NCBI GenBank assembly: GCA_023398815.1
Contig: JAEWRW010000028.1
Location: 139,102-203,101, forward strand
DNA length: 64,000 nucleotides
Direction: 5' to 3'
From: Bacillota bacterium
GTDB lineage: Bacteria; Bacillota; Clostridia; Christensenellales; UMGS416
In this document: positions 41,590 to 47,814 of the stretch, one piece after another
Position numbering within the stretch: the stretch's first letter is position 1
Layout: each line of letters opens with the position of its first letter
Position numbers and translations under genes: made by a program
The notes under the pieces: generated by a model
Told to the model about the DNA's origin: nothing
The model's input: only the letters and a program-made list of their open reading frames with translations
Databases searched by the model: none

Positions 41590-42657
41590 TCAGTAGCGGC
41601 CCACTTCCTTAACCAGGGCGACGATGCGGCGGAAATCAGCAAGCGACACGGTATTGGGGATGGAGTGATCGGAGGAGAAGATGTATCCCCCGTTTTGCTT
41701 CATCAGCGGCACCACGCGGCGGATTTCTTCCTCAATTGCCTCGGGCTTATCCCACAGGACGGCGTTGACCCCGCCGTGGAAGGTCAGCCGGTCGCCATAC
41801 ATTCCCTTGAGCTTGACCGGATCCATGCCAGCCTTAACTTCCACGGGATTGAGGACATCGATGCCGCAATCCAGGATGTCAGGCAGCAGGGGCTCGATGA
41901 ACCCGCAGGAGTGAAGCTCGGCCTTGATGCCGTGGGCATGGGCCCACTCCACCGCCCGCCGGTGGGCCGGCTGCAGAATCGTCCGGTAGGTATTGCGGGA
42001 GAAGAACGGCGTGTGCTTGTAGCCCATGTCGTCGTACCAGAAGATGGAATCGAAGTGATAGCCCCTCTCCCACACCTTGTCAAAGAGGGCGATGGTGGTA
42101 TCGAGGTAGTGGTTGACCATGTCAATGATCCACTCAGGGTCCTCCATCATGCCGATGAGGACCGTCTCCATCCCCGCCATCCAGGAGTGGAGAACGTCGT
42201 AGCCAAACCAGAATGTGCCGGTGATCCAGCGCCCCTCCTGCCGCCAGCGGCGGTAGTTGCGTTCCAGCGCTGCCCAGTCCACCCGGTCCTCGGTGGGCAC
42301 CATGCGGGCTTTGGCCTCCCGCCAGGCGTCGGGGGTGTTGACCTTGTAGCCCAGGAACTCCGGCGTGGAGTCGATGATGCCACGGCGCTCGCGGATCGTC
42401 ACGCCCCAGGGGGTCGTCACAATGCGGTACTCCTCGGTCTCCTCCAGCACCTCTTCGGGGTAGCGGGGGCTGTTGTCGATGCCGATGTTGGCGAAGAGAT
42501 CCACATCGAAGAAGCGGTCCCACTCGGCGTCGGCGGGCATCCCCTCAGCCTGCCAGCGCTGCAATGTGCCCCTCCACGGTGTGTCGGTGATGGGAATGCG
42601 ATCGGCCTCTTTGTGCTCGATCATGCGGAGAACCCGTTCCTGTGTCGTCATGGTCAT
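41590..42657 (-). CDS. uroporphyrinogen decarboxylase (URO-D) family protein, function unknown
   Basis: 355 aa: MTMTTQERVLRMIEHKEADRIPI...FWYDDMGYK...ELHSCGFIEPLLPDILDCGIDVLNPVE...IFSSDHSIP. This is the URO-D/MtaA-like TIM-barrel pattern. No corrinoid protein or heme genes are nearby. Confidence 0.75.
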   Translation of the reverse strand: MTMTTQERVLRMIEHKEADRIPITDTPWRGTLQRWQAEGMPADAEWDRFFDVDLFANIGIDNSPRYPEEVLEETEEYRIVTTPWGVTIRERRGIIDSTPEFLGYKVNTPDAWREAKARMVPTEDRVDWAALERNYRRWRQEGRWITGTFWFGYDVLHSWMAGMETVLIGMMEDPEWIIDMVNHYLDTTIALFDKVWERGYHFDSIFWYDDMGYKHTPFFSRNTYRTILQPAHRRAVEWAHAHGIKAELHSCGFIEPLLPDILDCGIDVLNPVEVKAGMDPVKLKGMYGDRLTFHGGVNAVLWDKPEAIEEEIRRVVPLMKQNGGYIFSSDHSIPNTVSLADFRRIVALVKEVGRY

Positions 42658-43804: not shown

Positions 43805-44770
43805 TCACTCCTTTGGCATCAATTCCTGTGTAACGCCCGTGCCAGCCTCCATCGCACGGCGACGGTTCTGGCGTGTCTGCTCCAGCATGTACCACAGCAT
43901 GCCCGCCATGGTGACCAGGCCGCCCATCAGCAGGAAGATGGAAGGGCGGTCGCCCAGCAGGAAGAAGGCCCACGTGCCCGTGATGAGCGGCTGCACCAGC
44001 ATCATGATGGACGCGGTGGACGTGGGGATGTGCCCCAGAGACCAATTGACGATGGTGTGCCCAAAGAACGTGGAGCACACCACAATGACGCCCACATCCA
44101 GGAAGAGCCTGGGTGCGTAGGGCGCGAAGGACCAGCCGGACACCAAGATGAATACGGCCAGCAACACCGCGCTGATGCCGTATACCCCGGTGGTGTAGGT
44201 ATTGACCGTATAACGGGAGCGCATCTCCCGCCCGACGAGCATATAGCCGGAGAAGAGCAGCGCCCCCAGCAGAGCCAGCAGGTCACCGGTGATGTTGCCC
44301 TCCCGCCGCAGGAGCGAATTGGCCCCAACGAGCAGGATACCAAGGAAGCACACCGCCACCCCCATGAGACTGCGGCGCGAGTACCGCACGCCGAAGAGGA
44401 AACGGTCGCCAATGAGGGTGAACACCGGGTGGGCGCAGACCAGCACCATGGAGCCAAAGGTGGAGGTAAACTTGAGCGACTGCACCCACACATAGAAATG
44501 GAGTGCCAGGAACACCCCGGACGTGGCCAGCAGCAGCATGTCCTTGCGGGAGGACACGAGCTGGCGCAGCTCCTGTCTGCCCCGGGCGGAGAATACCACG
44601 AAGGGCAGCGTGCAGAGCGCAGCGGTGCTCAGCCGCCAGAAGTTGATGACAGCCGCCGGCATGCCGCCGGCCATGATGATCTTGTTCATCGGGGCAGAGA
44701 CGCCCATCATCAGGATGCTGAACCCCAGCGCCAGATACACCGGCAGCTTGTTCTGTTCGTCGTGTTTCAT
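43805..44770 (-). CDS. DMT superfamily (EamA-like) transporter
   Basis: ORF 43805..44971. The start is at 44770 (MKHDEQNKLPVYLALGFSILMMGVSAPMNK). It has about 10 hydrophobic helices in two EamA halves. Its ATG overlaps the TGA of the upstream gene (ATGA). Confidence 0.8.
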   Translation of the reverse strand: MKHDEQNKLPVYLALGFSILMMGVSAPMNKIIMAGGMPAAVINFWRLSTAALCTLPFVVFSARGRQELRQLVSSRKDMLLLATSGVFLALHFYVWVQSLKFTSTFGSMVLVCAHPVFTLIGDRFLFGVRYSRRSLMGVAVCFLGILLVGANSLLRREGNITGDLLALLGALLFSGYMLVGREMRSRYTVNTYTTGVYGISAVLLAVFILVSGWSFAPYAPRLFLDVGVIVVCSTFFGHTIVNWSLGHIPTSTASIMMLVQPLITGTWAFFLLGDRPSIFLLMGGLVTMAGMLWYMLEQTRQNRRRAMEAGTGVTQELMPKE

Positions 44771-45777
44771 GGGTGGCTCCTGTCCTGGGTTTGATCGTGC
44801 CAGCTGGAGCGGACGCGCGCGGCCAGCTCGGCGGCGATGTCCTCCAGCGGCAGGGCGCGTACGTCGTTGGGCGCCGCGGCATGGGGCTCGTGCAATACGG
44901 CGTTGCGATCCATCCACACCGACCAACTGCCGTTGCGGGAGAGAGCTTCCAGCCCGTTGCAGCCACCGCACCCCGCGCAGGGCAGCAGCACACCGGCTGC
45001 TGTGCCGCCCGGCAGCGCTGCCAGCGAAAGGAAAAGCTGATCGGCCAGGCAGCAGCGGGCCGGCAGACCCAACTTCAGAACCAAGCCGCCGGAGCCCTCC
45101 AATACCTGGGGGCGGCGGTTGCCGGTGTAGAGGTACACCATGCCAGCTTCCAGTAGCGTGGTCTCATCAATGGCACGCACTGTGCGGCCGCACATCTGCG
45201 ACAGGGTGCGGGCAAAATCAGCGCTGTACGCCCGCGCGTGGTGCTGCAGAATGAGCACCGGCGGTCCTTCCAACGGCAACTGGCGCAGCAGATAGGTCAC
45301 CGCCACCGGCCCGCCTTTGGCCGCCGCAATGGCGACGACGCGAAGTGTTGTATCTTGGGCCGCAACGGGCTGGGGCATCGCCATGGCGGCGATGCGCACG
45401 CGGGAAGCGAGCTCGGTGCCGAATTGGTCAATCTCACTGTCGCTGCCATAGAGCGGCAGATACAGAAAGTCAACCGCACCAGCATCCAGCAACGAAAGCG
45501 CCATGTCATTGGTGGGGCTGATGGCCACAACGGGCAACCGGGGAAAGCGGCTTTGCAGTGTCACCAGGGGCACAGGGCGGCGGTACCGCCCGGCGTCCAG
45601 CACCACGGCATCGGCCATGCGCGCCGCAAGCGCGGTGAGCATCCCCTCCGGCGGGACACACCGGCAATGCAGGGCGTCGCCCCAGCGGTCCAGTTCGGCC
45701 CCCACGATGCGGCGCACGTCCTCATCGCCGCTCACCACCAGCACCTCGATGCTCCAGTTGCGTCCCGGCCCCTCCAT
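44767..45777 (-). CDS. CheB-like protein (receiver-like + methylesterase-like domains), catalytic residues not conserved
   Basis: ORF 44767..45780; the ATG at 45777 overlaps the AraC TGA by 1 nt. The C-terminal domain aligns by eye with CheB: VVAIAAAKGGPVAV versus IGASTGG, LILQHH versus VQHMP, LPCAGCGGC versus LTGMGNDGA. The N-terminal domain is receiver-like (VVLDAG, VVAISP, DFLYLP). Confidence 0.6.
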   Translation of the reverse strand: MEGPGRNWSIEVLVVSGDEDVRRIVGAELDRWGDALHCRCVPPEGMLTALAARMADAVVLDAGRYRRPVPLVTLQSRFPRLPVVAISPTNDMALSLLDAGAVDFLYLPLYGSDSEIDQFGTELASRVRIAAMAMPQPVAAQDTTLRVVAIAAAKGGPVAVTYLLRQLPLEGPPVLILQHHARAYSADFARTLSQMCGRTVRAIDETTLLEAGMVYLYTGNRRPQVLEGSGGLVLKLGLPARCCLADQLFLSLAALPGGTAAGVLLPCAGCGGCNGLEALSRNGSWSVWMDRNAVLHEPHAAAPNDVRALPLEDIAAELAARVRSSWHDQTQDRSHP

Positions 45778-46673
45778 CACTGTCTCCCCACCTGGCGGCG
45801 ATACTTCATGGGGGAGATGCCCACAGACTTGATGAAGAGCTCGTTCATACGGCGCTGGTCACTGAAGCCGGCGGCCATCGCCACGTCCTTGATGCTGCGG
45901 TCGGTGTTCACCAGCATCTCCTGCGCCTTGGCCAGGCGCACCTGCTGCAGGTAGTGCATGGGCGACTGCCCCCATGCCTCCTTGAAGGCGCGAACAAAAT
46001 AGCTGGGGCTGAGGTAGACATAGCCAGCGATCTGGCGAAGGGTCAGGTCTTCGGTGTAGTTCTCCTCAATGTATGCCCGGGCGCTGTGCATGTATTCACT
46101 GATGCGCTGGCCGTGGGGCTCCACCGAACTCTCCCACTGGGCGCGGAGCGCCCGGGAGATGAGCACAAAGAGCTCCAGCACCATGAGGCGAATCATGAAC
46201 TCGTATCCTTCGTTGGCCTGGCGCTGTTCGGTGAGGATTCGGTTGATCTGGCGGGTGACATCGCTCCACAGGCCAGCATTGATGGGCACATACTCGGTGT
46301 CGGAGGGGTTGACCAGATAATTGAGAAAATCCTTGAGGGCCGGGGCGTAAATCTCATTACCAGCGTAGTCGGCAAATTGAAAGCGCATGACGACAATGTC
46401 GCAGCTCCCCTCCCCCAGCACGGTGAAACGGTGCAGCATGCGGGGGCGTATGATCATTAGGTCGCCGGGGCCCATGGGGGCGGTGCGGTCACCGGCAAAG
46501 GTGAACACCGCCTGGCCCTGGCGGATGAACGCCATCTCAAAGCTGTCATGGGTGCTGAAGTCGGTGCTGATGCGGTTGGCGTCGTGCACCCGCTCCACCA
46601 ACTCCACAATGACCGGCACAAGGCCTGCGGTCTGCATTGTCTGTTCCCAAATGATGGGATTCGGTTGGCTCAT
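45777..46673 (-). CDS. AraC family transcriptional regulator (cupin sensor + HTH)
   Basis: ORF 45777..46832. The start is at 46673, 1 nt after the glycerate kinase stop. It has a cupin-like N-terminus (FIRQGQAVFTFAGD...MIIRPRMLHRF) and a C-terminal AraC HTH (LTLRQIAGYVYLSPSYFVRAFKEAWGQSPMHYLQQVRLAKAQEML...GFSDQRRMNELFIKSVGISPMKYR). Confidence 0.85.
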   Translation of the reverse strand: MSQPNPIIWEQTMQTAGLVPVIVELVERVHDANRISTDFSTHDSFEMAFIRQGQAVFTFAGDRTAPMGPGDLMIIRPRMLHRFTVLGEGSCDIVVMRFQFADYAGNEIYAPALKDFLNYLVNPSDTEYVPINAGLWSDVTRQINRILTEQRQANEGYEFMIRLMVLELFVLISRALRAQWESSVEPHGQRISEYMHSARAYIEENYTEDLTLRQIAGYVYLSPSYFVRAFKEAWGQSPMHYLQQVRLAKAQEMLVNTDRSIKDVAMAAGFSDQRRMNELFIKSVGISPMKYRRQVGRQ

Positions 46674-46674
46674 G

Positions 46675-47814
46675 TCAGCGTTCCATCCCCCTGCCAGTTT
46701 GAAGGGCCCGGGCCAGCCGGGCTGTGGCACCCTCGATGAGCGCCGCCGCGTTTGCCATGGATTGCTCCGGCGACAGGGGGCCGTCCGCAATGGCCATGAC
46801 GCAGTGGATTCCCTGTTGATGCACGGCCTCATACCCAGGCCCTAACCGCCCGGCGATGGCCGCCACCGGCAGGCCGCCGGCCCGGCGGGCCACACCCACC
46901 GGTACCTTGCCCAGCGCCGTCTGCTCGTCCAGGCTCCCCTCGCCGGTGAGGAGCAGCGACGCGCCGGAGAGCGCCTCGTCAAAGTGTGCGGCCTCCAGCA
47001 CCACGTCGATGCCGGGGAGCATTTGGGCTCCGCAGTAGCGCATCAGTGCCCAACCCAAGCCACCGGCAGCCCCTGCTCCCGGCTGGTTGGCACAGTCCGC
47101 CCCACCCCGCGCCGCCACGGCAGCCAGGTGGGCAAGGCAGCGCTCCATGTGCGCCACGTCGTCGGGCGTCGCGCCCTTCTGCGGGCCAAAGACCGCAGAC
47201 GCACCCTGGGGGCCGCAGAGCGGGTTGCCCACGTCACTTGCCAACACCATTTCGCAGGCGGCCAGGCGGGCATCGAGGCCGCTCACGTCAATGGCAGCGA
47301 GCCGACACAGATCACCGGGGGCAACAAGCTCGCCCCCCTCGGACAAGAAGCGCACGCCCAGCGCCCGCAGCAGACCCATGCCGCCGTCGTTGGTGGCACT
47401 GCCGCCGATGCCCACGATGAAACGGCGACACCCGGCGTCCAGCGCGGCCCGCACCAGTTCACCGGTGCCATAGGTATCGGCCCGCCGCACATCGCGGCGC
47501 TCGGTCGGCACCAGCGCAAGCCCAGAGGCCCTTGCCATCTCGATGACGGCGGTGTTGTCGGGCAGCAGGAGCCAAGCCGCTTCCACCATGTCGCCCAGCG
47601 GGCCGCGCACGGCACAGCGCTGCCAGCTGCCTCCACAGGCGGCCTGCATCGCTTCCAGTGTTCCCTCGCCGCCATCGGCCACCGGCAGTAACACCAATTC
47701 ATCCCCCGGGCAAACGCGAGCCCACCCCCGCGCCATGGCGCGAGCCACCTCATCGGCGGGGCAAGAGCCTTTGAACTTGTCGGGTACAATCACAACCTTC
47801 ATGCGCAGATCCAT
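46675..47814 (-). CDS. glxK: glycerate kinase
   Basis: 379 aa: MKVVIVPDKFKGSC...LPVADGGEGTLEAM...IVGIGGSATNDGGMGLLRALG...LLLTGEGSLDEQTALGKVPVGVA. Confidence 0.88.
   Translation of the reverse strand: MDLRMKVVIVPDKFKGSCPADEVARAMARGWARVCPGDELVLLPVADGGEGTLEAMQAACGGSWQRCAVRGPLGDMVEAAWLLLPDNTAVIEMARASGLALVPTERRDVRRADTYGTGELVRAALDAGCRRFIVGIGGSATNDGGMGLLRALGVRFLSEGGELVAPGDLCRLAAIDVSGLDARLAACEMVLASDVGNPLCGPQGASAVFGPQKGATPDDVAHMERCLAHLAAVAARGGADCANQPGAGAAGGLGWALMRYCGAQMLPGIDVVLEAAHFDEALSGASLLLTGEGSLDEQTALGKVPVGVARRAGGLPVAAIAGRLGPGYEAVHQQGIHCVMAIADGPLSPEQSMANAAALIEGATARLARALQTGRGMER

Follow-up and report, generated by a model that had tools for sequence, protein, structure and literature searches.

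CheB is among the best-understood signaling enzymes. Structures are available for the proteins from Salmonella (1A2O and 1CHD), P. atrosepticum (6YMZ), and T. maritima (3SFT), and the protein pairs a receiver domain (PF00072) with a methylesterase domain (PF01339). Receiver folds also occur as pseudo-receivers, such as the N-terminal domain of KaiA, FrzS, and HP1043-type proteins, which lack the Mg2+-binding Asp pair and/or the Lys and function independently of phosphorylation. Regulators of the AraC family, in turn, can have a dedicated partner, as in the pairs ExsA-ExsD, InvF-SicA, and MxiE-IpgC, in which the partners are chaperones or anti-activators. Here, we describe a CheB-like protein encoded in a 64,000-nucleotide stretch (the window) of contig JAEWRW010000028.1 (positions 139,102 to 203,101; assembly GCA_023398815.1) from a Bacillota bacterium. 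The protein is homologous to CheB and shares its domain folds, has lost key catalytic and receiver residues, and is under purifying selection. It belongs to a monophyletic subfamily restricted to a single genus, in which its gene is linked to, and co-occurs with, a gene for a cupin-AraC regulator. We consider the chances about even that it acts as a non-catalytic regulatory partner of this regulator.

The protein has the same two-domain layout as CheB and a similar length. Retained features are the Gln that precedes the catalytic His, the receiver's acceptor Asp, and, in the GxSxGG loop, the Gly-Gly. The protein differs from CheB in its remodeled HMP, APG, TGMG, and GMP motifs, in the lack of linkage to che genes, and, as far as the model fixes it, in its predicted domain orientation. 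Like the pseudo-receivers, its N-terminal domain appears to keep the receiver fold without the Asp pair and the Lys; unlike the known examples, this domain is fused to a dead esterase domain in a protein that is coupled to AraC. The gene arrangement is analogous to that of ExsA-ExsD, InvF-SicA, and MxiE-IpgC, since an AraC/XylS gene is tightly linked to the gene for a non-DNA-binding protein that might be a modulator. However, the folds of the known partners are unrelated to CheB, and the interaction within the pair described here is a putative one. In the searchable literature, we found no description of a CheB pseudo-enzyme or of an AraC-linked or CheB-derived AraC partner.

The assignment to CheB is supported by several searches. 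CheB_methylest (PF01339) is the sole Pfam family matched by the protein; it covers residues 149 to 319 over the full 174 positions of the profile (74.9 bits, E = 8e-21, cut-off of 24). The top phmmer match among all PDB sequences was Salmonella CheB 1A2O (E = 3e-20), followed by P. atrosepticum 6YMZ and the catalytic domain 1CHD. The NCBIfam models of CheB were matched well below their cut-offs (NF009206, 94.1 bits versus 342; NF001965, 84 bits versus 293). The same residue register was obtained from the phmmer alignment with 1A2O, which carried maximal posterior marks, and from two MAFFT alignments that included the canonical CheB of the same genome. Residues are numbered from a GTG codon at 45780; an earlier note, made by eye from the DNA, had counted from the following ATG, so that its numbers are lower by 1. 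The comparison with Salmonella CheB revealed the following. (i) In the esterase domain, the nucleophile Ser164 is replaced by Ala154 (IGASTGG reads IAAAKGG; codon 45319-45321), His190 is retained as His180 (VQHMP reads LQHHA; codon 45241-45243), and Asp286 is replaced by Gly272 (GMGNDG reads AGCGGC; codon 44965-44967). (ii) In the receiver domain, Lys109 is replaced by Leu108 (DFVTKP reads DFLYLP) and the acidic pocket residues Asp10/Asp11 by Ser17/Gly18 (VDDS reads VSGD). (iii) The acceptor Asp56 is retained as Asp62, and the Thr/Ser position as Ser88. These assignments match those of the 6YMZ CheB, with the triad S165-H191-D287 and the acceptor D56 (PMC7698151).

The earlier note had proposed precisely this pattern, namely, Ser replaced by Ala153 and Asp by Gly271 (Ala154 and Gly272 here), a retained His in LQHH, a candidate acceptor Asp kept in the receiver, an altered acidic pocket, and a conserved Lys turned into Leu. 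Its register was correct at every residue, and alignment, which it had suggested against the CheB_methylest and Response_reg profiles, confirmed the substitutions; Response_reg gave no match at E ≤ 1. Among the ordinary CheB homologues from the same search, 68 of 68 contain the Ser, His, and Asp, and none lacks the triad. A CheB without it is thus highly atypical of the family. Measured against a functional CheB, the protein shows the homology, and what is missing is the triad, a phosphorylatable receiver, a score above the NCBIfam cut-offs, and linkage to che genes. It is thus a true CheB homologue and, judged by its sequence, a pseudo-enzyme, as the catalytic residues are absent from an intact frame that is under purifying selection.

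Because the region has a GC content of 65% and is rich in overlapping spurious open reading frames (ORFs) in the ORF listing, the reality of the gene was put to the test rather than assumed. The longer ORF (44767..45780, minus strand) encodes 337 amino acids with GTG as the first codon. The ATG at 45777 is its second codon; a GGAGA Shine-Dalgarno sequence is found 6 nt upstream of this ATG, and the orthologues were called from the equivalent ATG. Compared with an 89%-identical orthologue in the metagenome-assembled genome (MAG) GCA_023409755.1, the ratio of nonsynonymous to synonymous substitution rates (dN/dS) was 0.13 by NG86 and 0.115 by YN00, at a dS of ~0.5, and is in a range similar to that of the neighboring genes for GH32, PfkB, glycerate kinase, and holB (0.08 to 0.13). 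In the following, G, P, and L denote genomes, proteins, and loci or contigs, respectively; G000 is the window genome, and L007, L016, and L015 are the contig of P0002 and those of G006 and G008, respectively. Over five close pairs, omega was 0.13 for G000/G005, 0.08 for G006/G008, and 0.14 to 0.19 among G007, G009, and G010, and the reading frame is unbroken in all 7 species of the genus as well as in metagenomic members. The CheB-like gene is thus a protein-coding gene kept by purifying selection. A decaying pseudogene, or an annotation artifact among the spurious ORFs, might have been suspected from the missing catalytic residues, from a very long branch in the tree (1.9 substitutions per site), and from the base composition of the region. 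To this we give next to no credence: dN/dS values between 0.08 and 0.19 in five independent pairs rule out pseudogene decay and effectively refute the reading as a whole, and the intact frames in 7 genomes and in metagenomic members, the confident structural model, the Shine-Dalgarno sequence, and start and stop codons that are coupled with those of the neighbors speak against it as well.

The AlphaFold2 model, based on a 71-sequence alignment, has a mean predicted local distance difference test score (pLDDT) of 86 and a predicted template modeling score (pTM) of 0.61. In this model, residues 11 to 133 adopt the (beta-alpha)5 receiver fold in full, with all five strands, and residues 148 to 334 adopt an alpha/beta esterase fold. 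The first Foldseek matches in the PDB were the full-length CheB proteins 6YMZ and 1A2O (E = 4e-22 to 2e-19). When superposed on known structures, as the earlier note had advised, each domain matches its counterpart: the C-terminal domain gave template modeling (TM) scores of 0.79 to 1CHD (root mean square deviation [rmsd] of 2.5 Å) and 0.80 to 3SFT (rmsd range of 2.5 to 3.0 Å), and the N-terminal domain scores of 0.73 to 0.79 to many receiver domains. The TM score of the whole chain with CheB was just 0.49, and consequently the predicted domain packing is either unlike that of inactive CheB or not fixed by the model, given the pTM of 0.61. The note's reservation that the protein might not be CheB-related at all is answered by Pfam, phmmer, and fold comparisons, which all point to CheB. 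For the N-terminal domain, Pfam gave no match to Response_reg (PF00072) at E ≤ 1, and the NtrC receiver was found by phmmer against the PDB with an E value of merely 0.13. However, 10 of 18 subfamily members do match PF00072 (best E = 4e-10), from which it follows that the domain is a genuine receiver homologue that has drifted beyond the range of the profile on the branch leading to the window protein. On this sequence evidence, it is a receiver homologue and not a functional member of PF00072.

Contig C62 of the window genome (3.57-Mb assembly, 94% completeness) also encodes a canonical CheB, which scores 207 bits and in which the motifs VDDS, LDVEMP, TKP, GASTGG, QHMP, and GMGADG are intact. 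Its gene is flanked by cheR and flgC (L001, 399-3325), and C62 carries a gene for a methyl-accepting chemotaxis protein (MCP) as well, at a distance of ~2.5 kb. This CheB-CheR locus is the actual chemotaxis adaptation module of the genome, and at least 11 MCP genes are present elsewhere. The organism is therefore chemotactic, and the gene in the window is an additional, divergent paralogue. In agreement with the earlier note, there are no chemotaxis or MCP genes within the 64-kb window, and no che gene is linked to the CheB-like gene in any of the 13 loci analyzed below. The designation as an orphan CheB consequently holds locally, whereas it does not apply to the genome, with its CheB-CheR pair on C62 and its MCP genes.

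A word-indexed search of 5.8 billion proteins retrieved only two close relatives, P0001 (89% identity) and P0002 (46%); all other matches were at most 32% identical and, with the exception of P0030 and the short P0051, carry both Response_reg and CheB_methylest. A profile search of 1.84 billion representative proteins gave 610 bits for P0002 and 130 to 183 bits for 12 clusters (P0073 to P0084; 258 to 337 amino acids), with canonical CheBs near 100 bits, so that ~13 clusters exceed 130 bits in this set. With a profile made from 18 members, the subfamily was detected at 359 to 450 bits in 7 of 7 species of the window's genus and was absent from ~394 other sampled genomes of the order, in which the best match per genome (at most 200 bits) was an ordinary CheB. 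In a maximum likelihood tree built from 21 members of the subfamily and 33 canonical CheBs, the subfamily is placed on one side of a branch with 100/100 support and a length of ~2.1 substitutions per site, a join at which long-branch effects are likely. The proteins of G006 and G008 and the metagenomic P0083, which have an intact triad, form a clade (99/96) that is sister to all other members (90/99). The longest branch inside the subfamily, with 1.9 substitutions per site, is that of the window's sub-clade. The window protein has all the features that define this AraC-linked subfamily, namely, the altered pocket, the replaced Lys, the specific motifs, and the upstream AraC gene. As far as the sampled sequences indicate, the subfamily is monophyletic and limited to one uncultured gut Bacillota genus. 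The protein of the window, treated as a lone case in the earlier note, is thus a member of a subfamily with a surviving triad-intact sister clade; the view of the protein itself as a pseudo-enzyme is upheld.

Within the subfamily, the receiver and the esterase active site have different histories. In all members, the first pocket Asp is replaced by Ala, Ser, Gly, or Thr and the receiver Lys by Leu, Met, Ile, or Val, which dates the pseudo-receiver to the ancestor of the clade; 15 of 18 nonredundant members retain the acceptor Asp (Asp62). The full Ser/His/Asp triad is confined to G006, G008, and P0083. The members of this sister clade share with the window the GlyK-AraC-CheB-like locus (GlyK, glycerate kinase), the pseudo-receiver (Ala in the pocket, Lys replaced by Val or Met), and the subfamily motifs. 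They differ in keeping Ser, His, and Asp (GSSGG / LHG or QHN / GRDG), are ~35% identical to the window protein, and may, from their sequences, be catalytic. In the triad-degraded clade, the Ser position is occupied by Ala, Gly, Asp, Glu, or Pro (Ser is retained in P0073, P0080, and P0084), the His position by Lys, Arg, Gln, Trp, Met, or Asp (His is retained only in the window pair), and the Asp loop is shortened or rewritten. P0002, which belongs to the window's sub-clade, lacks the His too. Since the three triad positions vary freely in this clade, the data suggest that the constraint on catalysis was released once and that the residues then decayed independently; since the triad-intact members are sister to the degraded ones, catalysis would have become dispensable after the AraC linkage arose.

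To define what the subfamily has gained, 18 nonredundant members were compared column by column with 57 canonical CheBs. Nearly every position that is conserved in at least 85% of the canonical proteins has been given up, namely, DD-S, T before LD, MP, and K in the receiver and G-S-T, H-M-P, R, E-A, A-P-G, P, T-G-M, Q, and G-M-P in the C-terminal domain. Newly fixed residues in the receiver are G112-S113-x-S115-D/E116, directly after beta5, and F120, D123-A124, and R127 in a helix (F..DA..R.K). In the C-terminal domain, M196-x-G198-R199 and E309-L-P-L-E313-D314 are fixed, and K/R292-N293-A294-x-L296 is found where the canonical GMP loop was. These subfamily-specific, non-catalytic motifs appear to be the best candidates for a new functional surface.

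The most constant feature of the locus is the AraC gene. In 13 of 13 loci, namely, those of the 7 genomes of the genus plus the contigs of P0002, P0083, P0073, P0075, P0074, and P0078, the gene directly preceding the CheB-like gene encodes an AraC orthologue, and its stop codon overlaps or abuts the start codon of the CheB-like gene. Several of the subfamily contigs are only ~2 kb long; in every locus whose contig extends that far, a glycerate kinase gene precedes AraC, and the trio GlyK-AraC-CheB-like comprises the only genes of the operon that are conserved across the genus. In the window, the GlyK TGA is separated by 1 nt from the AraC ATG at 46673, AraC and the CheB-like gene overlap in TGATG, the CheB-like and EamA genes overlap in ATGA, and a GGAG-type ribosome-binding site is present at each of the three junctions. 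Both overlaps named in the earlier note, with an AraC regulator upstream and a transporter downstream, are thus real. The AraC start is likely the ATG at 46673 (MSQPNPIIWEQ...), with which the N termini in G007 and G009 agree; gene callers chose a later ATG on the orthologous MAG, equivalent to 46637 (286 amino acids). The AraC orthologue (70 to 100% identity) is found in the same 7 genomes as the subfamily and in 0 of the 16 other genomes of the family, where identities were at most 29%; an AraC-baited scan of named genomes with very specific peptide patterns found no closer AraC elsewhere. The distribution and co-occurrence check proposed in the note thus yields the same 7 genomes for both proteins. 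A scan for promoters and terminators gave nothing beyond shuffled expectation. The features of the locus are compiled in Table 1.

Table 1. Features of the GlyK-AraC-CheB-like locus in the window
Feature	Coordinates	Strand	Supporting data and remarks
CheB-derived pseudo-enzyme gene	44767..45777	-	336 aa from ATG 45777; CheB_methylest 74.9 bits; 1A2O E 3e-20; dN/dS 0.13
N-terminal pseudo-receiver domain, residues 11-133	45382..45750	-	AlphaFold2 (beta-alpha)5 fold, pLDDT >90; TM 0.73-0.79
C-terminal CheB-methylesterase-fold domain with degraded active site (Ala154, Lys155, His180, Gly272)	44779..45339	-	Fold and alignments
Partner regulator, cupin (AraC_binding) and AraC/XylS helix-turn-helix (HTH)	45777..46673	-	HTH_18 81.5 bits; AraC_binding 30.5 bits; dN/dS 0.018
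Glycerate kinase (GlyK) gene, first of the GlyK-AraC-CheB-like trio	46675..47814	-	Gly_kinase 449 bits
EamA/DMT transporter gene	43805..44770	-	EamA 96 bits; only in the window's sub-clade (G000, G005, P0002 contig)
GNAT-like gene, 375 aa	42673-43800	-	Variable downstream companion, near the locus across the genus
URO-D-family gene (MtaA/CmuA-like)	41590-42657	-	Variable downstream companion, near the locus across the genus

The genes downstream of the trio vary. EamA is found in the window's sub-clade and is not downstream of the CheB-like gene in G006 to G010 and L065. In its place, the 375-amino-acid GNAT-like gene follows in G007, G009, and G010, a methyltransferase gene after a gap in L065, and a convergent acetyltransferase gene in L068. 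In G006 and G008, the operon ends at the CheB-like gene, which faces a convergent small GNAT gene and an MCP gene. Of the AraC and transporter context emphasized in the earlier note, the AraC part is found in all 13 loci, whereas the transporter is outside the conserved unit and specific to the window's sub-clade. In L007, the C terminus of AraC and the N terminus of EamA are near-identical to those of the window, and the CheB-like protein between them is just 46% identical, an uneven rate within one operon.

These data are consistent with the following model. A two-domain protein descended from CheB would have departed from the chemotaxis pathway. Its receiver would no longer be phosphorylatable in the usual way, because the Mg2+-binding Asp pair and the switch Lys are gone, and its esterase domain would be without the nucleophile Ser and the triad Asp. 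The resulting pseudo-enzyme, presumably expressed and under selection, would serve as a non-catalytic co-regulator, anti-activator, or signal-input subunit of AraC. Translational coupling would probably provide the two proteins in a fixed proportion, and the pair would jointly regulate the GlyK-led operon, including the variable cargo downstream. A physical interaction between AraC and the CheB-like protein, and transcriptional control of this operon and its cargo as the output, are what we infer. The earlier note had proposed that a pseudo-enzyme was put to new use as a module for binding or regulation. This is supported by the residue loss, the dN/dS of 0.13, the AraC adjacency in 13 of 13 loci with changing downstream genes, and the presence of both proteins in the same 7 genomes; the regulatory function itself is putative.

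Several observations weigh against a partnership with AraC. The CheB-like protein evolves 5 to 10 times faster than its AraC neighbor, which is unusual for a tight obligate complex: in close pairs, the nonsynonymous substitutions per site (dN) were 0.061 versus 0.011, 0.147 versus 0.012, and 0.284 versus 0.035, and between sub-clades the identities were 33 to 37% for the CheB-like protein versus 68 to 73% for AraC. In addition, all carrier genomes are close kin, so that the co-occurrence counts as a single evolutionary event rather than as independent replication. Two products that serve the same pathway without contact would likewise explain why the genes are adjacent and coupled.

Alternative functions were weighed against the same data. 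The protein might still be chemotactic, a dead CheB that binds the methylation sites of chemoreceptors or competes with CheB and CheR and thus tunes adaptation, with AraC setting the timing. This is compatible with the chemotactic nature of the organism, which has a canonical CheB/CheR in addition to at least 11 MCPs, with the preserved esterase fold and oxyanion-hole Gly-Gly, and with the MCP gene near the locus in G006 and G008. However, the substrate-cleft residues of CheB are not conserved within the subfamily, none of the 13 loci has a linked che gene, and the strict coupling is to AraC and not to receptors; we regard this role as unlikely. The MCP genes of G006 and G008, together with the small GNAT genes, are located at positions 2-1458 of L016 and at about 3039-3872 of L015, respectively; their convergent orientation excludes co-transcription, and hence an operonic linkage. 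That a potentially active CheB-like enzyme is encoded so near a chemoreceptor in these two triad-intact species is intriguing. Alternatively, the pseudo-receiver could be the working part, with Asp62 and the acidic GSxSD loop forming an atypical phospho-, metal-, or ligand-sensing site in an adaptor that is independent of AraC. The retention of Asp62 in 15 of 18 members and the near-invariant, subfamily-specific GSxSD loop argue for such a site, but every member lacks the Mg2+ pocket and the Lys, there is no linked gene for a cognate kinase, and the invariant coupling to AraC would be left unexplained. As an AraC-independent function, this is also rather improbable; a sensing role of Asp62 and the GSxSD loop is nevertheless compatible with a partnership with AraC and could be its input.

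A new enzymatic activity is, in our view, very unlikely. Hydrolase or deamidase chemistry based on other residues, or directed at a new substrate (for example, a modification on AraC or a small-molecule ester), would account for the retained His180 and for the purifying selection, and the sister clade of G006, G008, and P0083 may, to judge from its full triad, be active. Against this, the triad positions vary freely in the degraded clade, the Asp loop is shortened, and even P0002, from the window's own sub-clade and 46% identical, has lost the His. Furthermore, the C-terminal domain has no other invariant Ser, Cys, or His, and the residues conserved in it across the subfamily are Gly, Leu, Asn, Asp, and Glu. 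A more elaborate scheme, to which we assign a small probability, would combine an enzymatic and a binding stage: GlyK-AraC-CheB-like could be a new transcription switch in which the triad-intact clade edits AraC by Gln deamidation or Glu-methyl-ester hydrolysis and the window clade has been frozen into a binding subunit. If true, the genus would preserve both stages of an enzyme-to-pseudo-enzyme transition acting on the same target.

Irrespective of the function, the clade shows a CheB scaffold that has left chemotaxis and lacks the phospho-switch and catalysis, and yet is under selection and linked to AraC. Since triad-intact and variously degraded orthologues share one locus, the genus provides a natural series for the change from enzyme to pseudo-enzyme, and the data suggest that it may harbor a new type of protein partner for AraC regulators. 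There is also a consequence for annotation. Pipelines will label members of the subfamily as [quoted passage not shown] a name that is very likely incorrect; such a label is unwarranted because the protein lacks the triad, a receiver that can be phosphorylated, and a che context, and scores below the curated cut-offs.

Two proteins outside the subfamily show partial degeneration. The metagenomic P0093 has a canonical receiver (DD / D / K) and the residues Ala, Thr, and Asp at the triad positions (VMGAATGG, VQTMP); it groups with ordinary CheBs in the tree and, by its sequence, appears to be a CheB that lost its esterase function independently of the AraC-linked clade, to which it does not belong. 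The reverse is seen in P0030 (contig L008, metagenomic; 337 amino acids, PF01339 only), in which Ser, His, and Asp are intact and the receiver is degenerate (DD pocket gone, Lys replaced by Gln); its triad and its unrelated gene context rule it out as a subfamily member. Finally, the GNAT-like protein (375 amino acids; 303 in L065) and the URO-D protein are paired near the locus throughout the genus, and the pair is inverted in L065 (4490-6476).

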